Shown piece after piece: positions 40,731 through 46,033 of a stretch of DNA of 64,000 bases. The position numbers were made by a program, and so were the translations under genes. The notes beneath the pieces were generated by a model. That model saw only the letters and a program-made list of their open reading frames with translations. It made no database searches and was not told where the DNA came from. Source of the stretch: Escherichia coli (GTDB taxonomy: Bacteria > Pseudomonadota > Gammaproteobacteria > Enterobacterales > Enterobacteriaceae); the NCBI RefSeq assembly GCF_036507355.1, contig NZ_AP027877.1; one strand, written 5' to 3'. Positions within the stretch are counted from its first letter, which is position 1; each line of letters starts with the position of its first letter.

Positions 40731-40863
40731 GCCAGGGGTGCTCGGCATAAGCCGAAGATATCGGTAGAGTTAATATTGAGCAGATCCCCCGGTGAAGGAT
40801 TTAACCGTGTTATCTCGTTGGAGATATTCATGGCGTATTTTGGATGATAACGAGGCGCAAAAA
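40731..40863 (+). promoter_or_regulatory. ompA 5' untranslated leader (stability hairpins, sRNA target region)
   Basis: Leader begins GCCAGGGGTGCTCGGCATAAGCCGAAG..., matches well-studied 133-nt ompA 5' UTR by recollection. Confidence 0.75.
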
Positions 40864-41916
40864 ATGAAAAAGACAGCTATCGCGATTGCAGTGGCACTGG
40901 CTGGTTTCGCTACCGTAGCGCAGGCCGCTCCGAAAGATAACACCTGGTACACTGGTGCTAAACTGGGCTGGTCCCAGTACCATGACACTGGTTTCATCGA
41001 CAACAATGGCCCGACCCATGAAAACCAACTGGGCGCTGGTGCTTTTGGTGGTTACCAGGTTAACCCGTATGTTGGCTTTGAAATGGGTTACGACTGGTTA
41101 GGTCGTATGCCGTACAAAGGCGACAACATCAACGGCGCATACAAAGCTCAGGGCGTTCAGCTGACCGCTAAACTGGGTTACCCAATCACTGACGATCTGG
41201 ACGTTTACACTCGTCTGGGTGGTATGGTATGGCGTGCAGACACCAAGTCTAACGTACCTGGTGGCGTATCCACTAAAGACCACGACACCGGCGTTTCTCC
41301 GGTCTTCGCTGGCGGTGTTGAGTACGCGATCACTCCTGAAATCGCTACCCGTCTGGAATACCAGTGGACCAACAACATCGGTGATGCACACACCATCGGC
41401 ACTCGTCCGGACAACGGCATGCTGAGCCTGGGTGTTTCCTACCGTTTCGGTCAGGGCGAAGCAGCTCCAGTAGTTGCTCCGGCTCCAGCTCCGGCACCGG
41501 AAGTACAGACCAAGCACTTCACTCTGAAGTCTGACGTTCTGTTCAACTTCAACAAAGCAACCCTGAAACCGGAAGGTCAGGCTGCTCTGGATCAGCTGTA
41601 CAGCCAGCTGAGCAACTTGGATCCGAAAGACGGTTCCGTAGTTGTTCTGGGTTACACCGACCGCATCGGTTCTGACGCTTACAACCAGGGTCTGTCCGAG
41701 CGCCGTGCTCAGTCTGTTGTTGATTACCTGATCTCCAAAGGTATCCCGGCAGACAAGATCTCCGCACGTGGTATGGGCGAATCCAACCCGGTTACTGGCA
41801 ACACCTGTGACAACGTGAAACAGCGTGCTGCACTGATCGACTGCCTGGCTCCGGATCGTCGCGTAGAGATCGAAGTTAAAGGTATCAAAGACGTTGTAAC
41901 TCAGCCGCAGGCTTAA
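40864..41916 (+). CDS. ompA: Outer membrane protein A (variant surface-loop allele)
   Basis: ORF 40792..41916; recognised start [21 protein letters not shown] at 40864; 350 aa with AP-repeat hinge and C-terminal OmpA domain. Confidence 0.95.
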
Positions 41917-41991: not shown

Positions 41992-42444
41992 TTATTCCTT
42001 ACCCAGCAATGCCTGCAGATCCTGCTTCAAAGAAGACATTTTATTCGCGTATTTCTCTTTGTTTTCCGCATCTTCAATCAGCTGAACAATCGTTTCAGAA
42101 AGCGTTTTACCGCGACGCTGCGCAAGACCAGCCAGACGTTGCCAGACAATAAATTCCAGATCGATCGATTTTTTGCGCGTATGCTGGTGTTCCGCATTAA
42201 AATGGCGCTTCCGTCTGGCCCGAATGGTTTGCTTCATGCGATTGACCAGTTCCGGATTCATATGCTTGTCAATCCAGCCATTTACCAGCACGGGTTCATT
42301 TTCCAGCGAGAGCAACACATCGACGGCTTCCTGGGCGGCACTGGCTTCTATGTAACGGGTGATTAACTCCCCTTCGCGATGCTTCTTCACCAGATACTTC
42401 CATTTCCAACCGCTTTCAAGATTTTCAAGTTGTTGATATTTCAT
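41992..42444 (-). CDS. matP: Ter macrodomain organiser MatP
   Basis: 150-aa [37 protein letters not shown]. Confidence 0.93.
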
Positions 42445-42629: not shown

Positions 42630-44390
42630 TTGACCATTACGAAACTTGCATGGCGTGACCTGGTTCCTGATACCGATAGCTATCAGGAAATATTTGCTCA
42701 GCCACATTTGATTGACGAAAACGATCCTTTATTCAGTTATACTCAACCGCGACTGCAATTTGCGCTGGAGCAGTTGCTGCATACGCGAGCATCCTCCTCT
42801 TTTATGCTGGCGAAGGCCCCGGAAGAGTCTGAGTATCTGAATCTTATTGCCGATGCCGCGCGTACGCTGCAAAGCGATGCAGGCCAACTGGTGGGCGGTC
42901 ACTATGAGGTTTCCGGCCACACCATCCGCTTACGTAACGCAGTGAGTGCAGATGATAATTTTGCGACTTTAACGCAAGTTGTCGCTGCCGACTGGGTAGA
43001 AGCGGAGCAACTCTTTGGCTGCCTGCGCCAGTTTAATGGCGACATTACCCTGCAGCCTGGTCTGGTGCATCAGGCAAATGGCGGTATTCTCATCATCTCT
43101 TTGCGTACACTGCTGGCGCAACCTCTGCTGTGGATGCGGCTGAAAAATATCGTTAACCGCGAGCGTTTTGACTGGGTTGCGTTTGATGAGTCGCGCCCTC
43201 TCCCCGTCTCTGTGCCTTCGATGCCATTGAAGCTGAAAGTCATTCTGGTAGGCGAACGCGAATCATTGGCTGATTTCCAGGAGATGGAGCCAGAGCTTTC
43301 AGAGCAGGCTATTTATAGCGAATTTGAAGATACTCTGCAGATTGTCGATGCGGAGTCAGTAAGCCAGTGGTGTCGCTGGGTGACATTTACCGCCAGACAT
43401 AATCACTTACCTGCACCGGGAGCGGATTCCTGGCCGGTACTTATCCGCGAAGCAGTACGCTACACCGGTGAACAAGAAACACTTCCGCTTAGCCCGCAGT
43501 GGATCCTCCGCCAGTGTAAAGAGGTCGCCTCCCTGTGTGATGGCGACACCTTCTCCGGCGAGCAGCTAAACTTAATGCTGCAGCAGCGTGAATGGCGCGA
43601 AGGTTTCCTCGCTGAACGTATGCAGGATGAGATCCTTCAGGAGCAAATCCTGATTGAAACCGAAGGCGAACGCATCGGGCAAATTAACGCCCTTTCGGTC
43701 ATTGAATTTCCGGGCCATCCACGCGCTTTTGGCGAACCTTCTCGCATTAGCTGCGTTGTGCATATTGGCGATGGTGAATTCACCGACATCGAACGCAAAG
43801 CGGAGCTTGGCGGCAATATCCATGCGAAAGGGATGATGATCATGCAGGCGTTCCTGATGTCGGAACTACAGCTTGAGCAACAGATCCCCTTCTCAGCATC
43901 GCTGACATTTGAGCAGTCATACAGTGAAGTGGATGGCGATAGTGCCTCGATGGCTGAGCTCTGCGCCCTGATAAGCGCCCTCGCCGATGTGCCGGTGAAT
44001 CAGAGTATCGCTATCACAGGTTCAGTCGATCAGTTCGGCCGCGTTCAGCCGGTCGGTGGTTTAAATGAGAAAATCGAAGGCTTCTTTGCTATTTGCCAGC
44101 AACGTGAGTTAACGGGGAAACAAGGTGTCATTATCCCCACTGCTAACATTCGCCATTTAAGTCTTCACAGTGAACTGGTGAAAGCGGTAGAAGAAGGCAA
44201 ATTCACCATCTGGGCAGTAGACGATGTGACTGACGCACTGCCGTTATTATTAAATCTGGTGTGGGATGGCGAAGGCCAAACGACGCTGATGCAAACCATC
44301 CAGGAACGTATCGCGCAAGCATCGCAACAGGAAGGACGTCACCGTTTTCCATGGCCATTACGTTGGCTGAACTGGTTTATTCCGAACTGA
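42630..44390 (+). CDS. ycbZ: Lon-like protease homolog YcbZ (LonH)
   Basis: 586-aa ORF; Lon proteolytic-domain-like C-terminus. Confidence 0.9.
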
Positions 44391-44420
44391 TCGGACTTGT
44401 TCAGCGTACACGTGTTAGCT
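44385..44420 (+). promoter_or_regulatory. fabA operator region (FadR and FabR binding sites)
   Basis: AACTGATCGGACTTGTT (FadR-type) and palindrome AGCGTACACGTGTTAGCT (FabR-type) upstream of fabA, overlapping ycbZ stop. Confidence 0.6.
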
Positions 44421-44458
44421 ATCCTGCGTGCTTCAATAAAATAAGGCTTACAGAGAAC

Positions 44459-44977
44459 ATGGTAGATAAACGCGAATCCTATACAAAAGAAGACCTTCTT
44501 GCCTCTGGTCGCGGTGAACTGTTTGGCGCTAAAGGCCCGCAATTGCCAGCACCGAACATGCTGATGATGGACCGTGTGGTCAAAATGACCGAAACGGGTG
44601 GTAACTTCGACAAAGGGTATGTTGAAGCAGAACTGGATATCAATCCGGATCTGTGGTTCTTCGGATGCCACTTTATTGGCGATCCGGTTATGCCGGGATG
44701 CCTGGGCCTGGACGCAATGTGGCAGCTGGTAGGGTTCTACCTCGGCTGGCTGGGCGGCGAAGGTAAAGGCCGCGCGCTGGGCGTTGGCGAAGTGAAATTC
44801 ACTGGTCAGGTACTGCCGACAGCGAAAAAAGTGACCTACCGTATTCACTTTAAACGCATTGTTAACCGTCGTCTGATTATGGGCCTGGCGGATGGCGAAG
44901 TGCTGGTTGATGGTCGTTTGATCTATACCGCCAGCGACCTGAAAGTCGGTCTGTTCCAGGATACGTCTGCCTTCTGA
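44459..44977 (+). CDS. fabA: 3-hydroxydecanoyl-ACP dehydratase/isomerase FabA
   Basis: ORF 44261..44977 is over-extended; recognised start [23 protein letters not shown] at 44459 (172 aa). Confidence 0.94.
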
Positions 44978-45004
44978 TTATAATCAGACAGAGTATCAAA
45001 AGGC

Positions 45005-45035
45005 GAAACCTCCGCAATGCGGAGGTTTCTTTTTA
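45005..45035. terminator. Bidirectional terminator between fabA and rmf
   Basis: Hairpin GAAACCTCCGCAATGCGGAGGTTTC followed by TTTTT. Confidence 0.85.
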
Positions 45036-45046
45036 AAGAGACAGAA

Positions 45047-45214
45047 TCAGGCCATTACTACCCTGTCCGCCATGGCTTCTCGCCAGCCTCCCAGCCATTG
45101 TGACCTTTGATTCAGCGTCTGATAGGGACACATTTCTTTTGAGCGTCCGGCGATGCCGGCCTGATAACCACGTTGATGTGCCCGTTCCAGGCGATCTCGT
45201 TTTTGTCTCTTCAT
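45047..45214 (-). CDS. rmf: Ribosome modulation factor (55 aa)
   Basis: Reverse translation MKRQKRDRLERAHQRGYQAGIAGRSKEMCPYQTLNQRSQWLGGWREAMADRVVMA; absent from ORF track (below size cutoff). Confidence 0.9.
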   Translation of the reverse strand: MKRQKRDRLERAHQRGYQAGIAGRSKEMCPYQTLNQRSQWLGGWREAMADRVVMA

Positions 45215-45469
45215 GCCTCGTTTCCCTCATACTGGTTTCTGGTGGAAAAGAAAACAGTGATTACTAAATGTGCAATCACAGTTAAGCAATACCCCGAATC
45301 ATAACTGCCGTCAATGCGCAAAATTCACGCCACTGTCATATTTGTGAGCTACACGGGCATGTCGGTTGTACAAAAAATGTGAAGAGGAACAAATTTTTCC
45401 GCACGTTAGAAACAAAAAAACCGCCTCAGGCAACATACCGGAGACGGTTATATTTACAAATCTTTACAA

Positions 45470-46033
45470 TTAAGGTAGACGCTTTATCTCTTGTGCAATA
45501 GAAGCGGCTTCCTGACTCCAGACACCGGCCAGCACTTTAACCATCTCATCGTAACCATCCTGAGTTTGCACTCCTTCCAGACGGAACGGACGTTTGATCA
45601 GTTGTCCCTGGTGGTTCAACAGCCACTCACCACTGACAATGACCTTGCCATCATAGCGACCGTTAAACTCCGTTACGGTAACATTGAGCGTGTCCTGGGC
45701 GCTTCCCAGAGGCTGGGAGGCAACCACCCAGCCGGGCAGTTGCGTGCTCAGGTTGGCTACCAGGGTGTTGCGCAACTGTTGATCCAACGGGCTGGCCCAC
45801 AAGTTGTTGTTGGCAATCACATACTTCACATCACTGGTTTGATAAACCACACCATTCCCCGCCAGATAGTCAGGTACAGCGACCTGCTCTACCCATAACA
45901 GGCGATTGCCCTGGCTGGCGGTACTTTGTGTACCGCTCTGCACCACAGGTAACTGGTAATAGTTTTTATTAATTTCGCCGGAGCTGCATCCGGCCAGCCA
46001 CAGTGCTGCAATCGTCACTAGCCACTTTTTCAT
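45470..46033 (-). CDS. pqiC: Lipoprotein PqiC (YmbA)
   Basis: 187-aa ORF with lipobox LWLAGC; 4-bp overlap with pqiB. Confidence 0.9.
   Translation of the reverse strand: MKKWLVTIAALWLAGCSSGEINKNYYQLPVVQSGTQSTASQGNRLLWVEQVAVPDYLAGNGVVYQTSDVKYVIANNNLWASPLDQQLRNTLVANLSTQLPGWVVASQPLGSAQDTLNVTVTEFNGRYDGKVIVSGEWLLNHQGQLIKRPFRLEGVQTQDGYDEMVKVLAGVWSQEAASIAQEIKRLP

Follow-up and report, generated by a model that had tools for sequence, protein, structure and literature searches.

In Escherichia coli, a FadR dimer reportedly activates fabA from a 17-bp box whose centre lies about 40 bp upstream of the transcription start and which overlaps a weak -35 element, and long-chain acyl-CoA is said to release FadR, upon which activation is lost. 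FabR is likewise said to repress the promoter from a palindrome positioned one base 3' of the FadR box and spanning the spacer between the -35 and -10 elements. In published work on E. coli and Salmonella, FadR is described as the activator and FabR as the repressor of fabA, which has two promoters; binding and repression of fabA by FabR have been reported from ChIP-qPCR in Salmonella and from the E. coli work cited there. Three fabA starts, S1, S2 and S3, have been described together with a CpxR footprint inside the upstream gene ycbZ (Xu et al., 2020; PMC7083825). A CpxR box at -272 to -258 is required for S3, and the footprint extends from -287 to -255, both counted from the fabA start codon (PMC7083825). 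In addition, a ycbZ-fabA operon has been described by RNA-seq (Conway et al., 2014), which agrees with the lack of a terminator between the two genes at the locus studied here; FadR and FabR are not discussed in that study.

Two further systems are close to this one. At fabB of E. coli, a FadR core is followed by a FabR palindrome at the same spacing as at fabA, but there the composite sits between the divergent genes fabB and mnmC, clear of any coding sequence, and its box begins with GG and not with AA. The fabAB operon of Pseudomonas aeruginosa resembles fabA in that it is co-transcribed with an unrelated upstream operon (PA1612-PA1611) and also has its own intergenic promoter with a site for DesT, a FabR-like regulator. 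However, the upstream genes are different, a FadR box is absent, and no overlap between operator and coding sequence has been reported.

The window analysed here is a stretch of 64,000 nucleotides of the E. coli chromosome. Positions 44200-44600, which contain the ycbZ-fabA junction, do not differ from K-12 MG1655, and 5425 of the 5426 complete E. coli genomes match them with an identity of 99% or more; the K-12 coordinate of any position is obtained as 1060929 minus the window coordinate. Locus and sequence are the same as those of the fabA promoter characterised in K-12, without differences (Henry & Cronan, 1991/1992; Zhang et al., 2002; Feng & Cronan, 2009/2011; Xu et al., 2020). The sequence represents the textbook fabA promoter/operator, FadR and FabR sites included; like the co-transcription with ycbZ and the promoter elements within ycbZ, these sites are already known. 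The features of the locus and the gene order around it are compiled in Table 1. At the left of this region, the mechanical ORF of ompA (40792-41916, GTG start at 40792, 374 aa) is over-extended in the same way as that of fabA (see below): the OmpA signal peptide starts at residue 25 (ATG at 40864), giving a protein of about 350 aa. As RefSeq OmpA has 346 aa in the strains compared, a loop-variant ompA allele is probably present in this strain.

Table 1. Features of the ycbZ-fabA locus in window coordinates.
Feature	Position	Strand	Basis
ompA	ends 41916	+	
matP	41992-42444	-	
ycbZ, Lon-like protease/AAA ATPase homologue, 586 aa, TTG start, TGA stop	42630-44390	+	ORF list; RefSeq ycbZ CDS of equal length, 1761 nt
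CpxR footprint (published), wholly within ycbZ	44172-44204	+	PMC7083825
CpxR box GTAGAAGAAGGCAAA, within the CpxR footprint and ycbZ	44187-44201	+	located in the window
S3, acid- and CpxR-dependent fabA start, 203 bp upstream of ATG, within ycbZ	44256	+	PMC7083825, coordinates converted
Spurious 5' extension of the 238-aa ORF, overlapping ycbZ out of frame	44261-44458	+	1MKA alignment; RefSeq CDS
FadR activator box AACTGATCGGACTTGTT	44385-44401	+	exact match; equals a stretch of the published gel-shift probe; conservation
ycbZ stop codon TGA, inside the CTGATC half-site of the FadR box	44388-44390	+	
Putative -35 hexamer TTGTTC, five of six bases within the FadR box	44397-44402	+	17 bp upstream of -10, read from the sequence
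FabR repressor palindrome AGCGTACACGTGTTAGCT, 18 bp, wholly 3' of the ycbZ stop	44403-44420	+	exact match; within the published probe
Putative -10 hexamer TATCCT, from geometry	44420-44425	+	TAnnCT in most compared sequences; three of six positions invariant
Probable S1, main FadR-activated fabA start, approximate	44429-44433	+	reporter description, primers, -19G>A mutation
fabA CDS, 172 aa, ATG start	44459-44977	+	RefSeq 519-nt CDS; 1MKA alignment
Two-way intrinsic terminator-like hairpin between convergent fabA and rmf	45005-45029	both	first + strand terminator-like site 3' of ycbZ
rmf	45047-45214	-	
pqiC	45470-46033	-	
pqiB	from 46030	-	

The fabA promoter region and the end of ycbZ

The FadR box AACTGATCGGACTTGTT was found once as an exact match, with 0.16 matches expected by chance when up to three mismatches are allowed, and the FabR palindrome AGCGTACACGTGTTAGCT was also found once, with 0.05 matches expected. 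Positions 44376-44431 are identical at every base to the published 56-nt probe fabA-F, which was used in FadR gel shifts (PMC4259882), and the FadR box matches the bound fabA site as well as the fab-type core CTGATCGGACTTG. Comparison with the characterised fabA promoter accordingly returned the same FadR and FabR sites, equal to the published probe; fabB is preceded by the same composite. Judged from the sequence, a chance match of the two sites is ruled out by the identity with the probe and by the conservation of the 13-nt FadR core.

The first three bases of the FadR box form the last sense codon of ycbZ, AAC (Asn, 44385-44387), and bases 4-6 form its stop codon TGA. The FabR palindrome follows one base 3' of the box and lies across the spacer between the putative -35 and -10 hexamers. 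The preliminary description had stated that the fabA control sequences begin before the ycbZ stop codon, which applies to the FadR box, with an overlap of 6 nt, but not to the FabR palindrome, the first base of which lies 13 nt beyond the stop; the positions it had given for the box, the palindrome, the stop codon and a 238-aa fabA ORF were all correct. This ORF, running from a GTG at 44261 to 44977 in the mechanical ORF list, had been regarded as an over-extension, and the assumption was borne out, as the solved FabA chain (PDB 1MKA, 171 aa) aligns only to its residues 68-238 and the RefSeq fabA CDS of 519 nt begins at the ATG corresponding to 44459.

The geometry of the promoter is compatible with the roles described for the two regulators. 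The spacer of 17 bp (44403-44419) is taken up by the FabR palindrome, and the centre of the FadR box at 44393 falls at about -36 to -40 from the probable S1, so that the box would overlap the -35 hexamer. The placement of S1 is good to about 2 nt only, since it was taken from the description of a published reporter covering -432 to +27 relative to the annotated start; the reporter primers map to 43997 and 44458, and the start positions derived from its -432 and +27 ends differ by 3 nt. A -19G>A mutation has been reported within the FabR site. A consensus promoter scan of 43900-45300 identified no sigma-70 site, and the fabA hexamers match the consensus at just 7 of 12 positions. This is as expected for an activator-dependent promoter, for which a poor match is anticipated, and the negative outcome of the scan is therefore uninformative.

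Further fabA control elements are positioned upstream within ycbZ. As S3, the CpxR box and the CpxR footprint all lie inside this gene, the published fabA control DNA already reaches about 290 bp into ycbZ, and the 6-bp overlap with the FadR box is the smallest part of it.

Conservation of the operator and of the ycbZ stop codon

To compare the arrangement across species, one genome per species was scanned for a conserved DNA pattern of the fabA active site, which yielded at least 120 loci, about half of them from outside the Enterobacterales. The comparison was carried out on the 58 Enterobacterales loci among the matches listed that hold the fabA start with ycbZ directly upstream, and the ycbZ stops were located by in-frame scanning. 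The FadR core CTGATCGGACTTG was kept with at most two mismatches in 50 of these 58 loci among the matches listed. In 49 of the 50 core-keeping loci, ycbZ terminates at the TGA of the FadR core, which, the species compared being related, does not amount to 49 independent events. The 49 loci among the matches listed span many genera of Enterobacteriaceae, the Yersiniaceae (Serratia, Yersinia, Rahnella and Rouxiella) and Budvicia, and the position of the stop within the box holds even where YcbZ identity falls to about 53%. That positions 4-6 of the box are the ycbZ stop codon in these loci is what the present analysis adds to the known fabA promoter.

Among the matches listed, 47 distinct Enterobacterales sequences were used to assess constraint at single positions. 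Of the 13 positions of the FadR core, 12 are invariant, and the last 20 ycbZ codons before the core show a mean top-base frequency of 0.75. For the FabR palindrome, 8 of 18 positions are invariant and the mean top-base frequency is 0.95; the FabR operator arrangement is kept across genera and also at fabB. At the protein level, the last ycbZ codon is AAC, GGC or AGC (N, G or S) in the matches listed, so that the residue varies while the C of CTGATC is constant, and the three residues before it vary freely (IPN, NHG, SRS, GSN and others).

The single exception among the core-keeping loci is Kosakonia cowanii, in which ycbZ meets a TAG some 89 nt upstream of fabA, five codons ahead of the usual stop. 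The TAG replaces a Trp codon (TGG) conserved in the other species and might reflect either a natural truncation or an error in sequencing. Where the box is degenerate, the stop is mostly no longer the TGA of the box in the lineages among the matches listed. Loci of Erwinia and Pantoea with a degenerate box have a TAA at the homologous position, and in Dickeya, Pectobacterium and Brenneria (four loci) ycbZ ends seven codons earlier. In these Pectobacteriaceae, some 75-110 nt before fabA, the FadR box has lost its left half-site (e.g., ACGCAACAGACTTGCT) and the FabR palindrome is kept, suggesting from the loss of the half-site that FadR activation of fabA may be lost or altered in this family. 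The former C-terminal codons of ycbZ persist there as non-coding sequence. A different kind of variation was observed in Budvicia aquatica, where about 30 extra nt separate the FabR palindrome from the fabA ATG and the start of the FadR box is shifted from -74 to -104, with the ycbZ stop still being the TGA inside the box.

The direction of the constraint can be read from operators that overlap no gene. In K-12, an identical core CTGATCGGACTTGTTC, followed by a GCGTACA-type palindrome, is present in the non-coding DNA between fabB and mnmC. As the same core is thus present in non-coding DNA, the A that creates the TGA is a property of the operator and not of ycbZ, and the idea that the A in CTGATC is present to provide ycbZ with a stop was rejected on the same ground. 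The FadR boxes of the repressed fad genes listed in PMC4259882 read CTGGT, and the A giving TGA belongs to the fab-type boxes; therefore, it is the operator that fixes the ycbZ stop and not the reverse. Beyond the Enterobacterales, a ycbZ-like gene also precedes fabA in Pseudidiomarina (Alteromonadales), so the synteny reaches further than the order. In Pseudidiomarina planktonica (locus L114, 2386-2477), a FadR-like box AACTAATCGGAGTTGTT, a T and a FabR-like palindrome AGCGTACAACTGTTCGCT make up a closely similar operator, which follows the stop of the ycbZ-like (Lon-like) gene at a distance of about 25 nt and is fully intergenic, without any overlap. The simplest reading is that ycbZ runs to the first in-frame stop, which happens to fall in a strongly conserved operator.

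Transcription from ycbZ into fabA

The two genes are located on the same strand with a gap of 68 nt and no intrinsic terminator between them; on the + strand, no terminator-like site was found between ycbZ and 45005, where the hairpin shared by fabA and rmf begins. This hairpin has a perfect 11-bp stem with T runs flanking it on both strands. RNA structure at the junction was not significant (fold z-score -0.9), and no Rfam families were identified at the ycbZ-fabA junction. Within 43800-45400, Rfam returned only three sub-threshold matches, all on the fabA/rmf terminator hairpin, which we take as chance. An attenuator or other RNA element at the junction was rejected on these grounds. Translational coupling of ycbZ and fabA was likewise rejected, as 68 nt separate the ycbZ stop from the fabA ATG. 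Given the lack of a terminator or significant RNA structure between the genes and the operon reported by RNA-seq, read-through from ycbZ into fabA is plausible, and it is already published.

To relate such read-through to fatty-acid control, expression values were taken from the S3 Dataset of PMC11226057, which gives counts per million (CPM) without length normalisation; values per kb are our own division by gene length. Wild-type levels are 683 CPM for fabA and 471 CPM for ycbZ, and levels in a yhdP fadR double mutant are 155 and 385 CPM, respectively (PMC11226057). In the double mutant, fabA is thus lowered by log2 -2.14 (about 4.4-fold), whereas the change in ycbZ is not significant (log2 -0.29, q 0.23; PMC11226057). 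Computed per kb from the same dataset, fabA and ycbZ reach 1315 and 268 in the wild type and 298 and 218 in the double mutant, figures that ignore differences in mRNA stability and, for the double mutant, come from cells sampled after a temperature shift. On these read densities, read-through would account for at most about 20% of wild-type fabA mRNA and at most about 70% of the residual fabA mRNA without FadR.

As the loss of fadR lowers fabA and not ycbZ, the data point to a FadR-independent floor and not to a coupled signal, with the two inputs acting in parallel. The preliminary description had concluded that fatty-acid regulation of fabA is physically coupled to read-through from ycbZ. 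Its premise of read-through is plausible and has been published; the coupling, however, is unsupported, as a 6-bp overlap alone gives none, the -35, the -10 and the start of the promoter governed by FadR and FabR are all located 3' of the ycbZ stop, and ycbZ remains unchanged upon loss of fadR.

Interpretation of the overlap

The best explanation of the locus, and in our view a very probable one, is a sigma-70 fabA promoter/operator in the 68-bp gap after ycbZ that overlaps this gene passively, with read-through as a parallel floor. The operator contains an in-frame TGA and is probably under strong purifying selection, and it would thereby fix where and how ycbZ ends. Transcripts begun further upstream, at the ycbZ promoters or at the CpxR-dependent S3 inside ycbZ, would also enter fabA and would provide a FadR-independent baseline of fabA expression, parallel to fatty-acid control rather than coupled to it.

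Alternatively, FadR and/or FabR bound at 44385-44420 might act as roadblocks, or the occupied promoter might occlude polymerase arriving from the ycbZ promoters or S3, the overlap then being selected for gating the ycbZ-fabA transcript by fatty-acid status. The reported operon would permit this, as would a junction free of terminators and of significant RNA structure, the overlap is conserved in three Enterobacterales families (loci among the matches listed), and the fabA read density without FadR, about 298 per kb, is close to the roughly 218 per kb of ycbZ, so that much of the residual fabA mRNA could be read-through. However, selection on the operator explains the conservation more simply, given that the identical core is non-coding at fabB and that the closely similar operator of Pseudidiomarina has no overlap. 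In addition, any operator 3' of an unterminated gene is traversed equally, and therefore the 6-bp overlap adds nothing. We consider this explanation unlikely. A shade less likely still is its more specific form, in which the embedded stop would not be passive and FadR and/or FabR would serve as acyl-CoA- or acyl-ACP-sensitive roadblocks at the end of ycbZ, setting how much ycbZ- or CpxR-initiated transcription enters fabA; as part of the same claim, such a role would explain the upkeep of the arrangement in Enterobacteriaceae, Yersiniaceae and Budviciaceae.

The overlap might also serve ycbZ itself, either by tuning termination of YcbZ translation or through a C-terminal residue selected for protein function, and a conserved motif near the YcbZ C-terminus in the matches listed is consistent with this. 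Against it, the three residues preceding the last codon are free to vary among the matches listed, and the last residue may be N, G or S, with a codon that always ends in C, indicating a constraint at the level of DNA and not of protein. Moreover, ycbZ ends five codons earlier in one species and seven codons earlier in one family (three genera sampled), and the distance of 68 nt from stop to ATG rules out translational coupling with fabA. A function of the overlap for ycbZ therefore appears highly improbable, and passive overlap with a conserved operator remains our preferred reading.

The 6-base overlap between the FadR box and ycbZ is real, conserved in related bacteria, and ordinary. The literature searched contained no paper mentioning both ycbZ and FadR, and hence the position of the stop codon within the FadR box, together with its conservation, may so far have gone unremarked, as a minor detail. 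With textbook sites and published co-transcription, the overall importance is small, and the comparative result opens no new question. For annotation, the value lies in the fabA start, which is 44459 and not 44261. For work on the locus, it is relevant that changes to the 3' end of ycbZ, whether by deletion or by recoding, can affect fabA expression. Across the Enterobacterales, the result represents a tidy case of an operator that fixes both the identity and the position of a neighbouring gene's stop codon.
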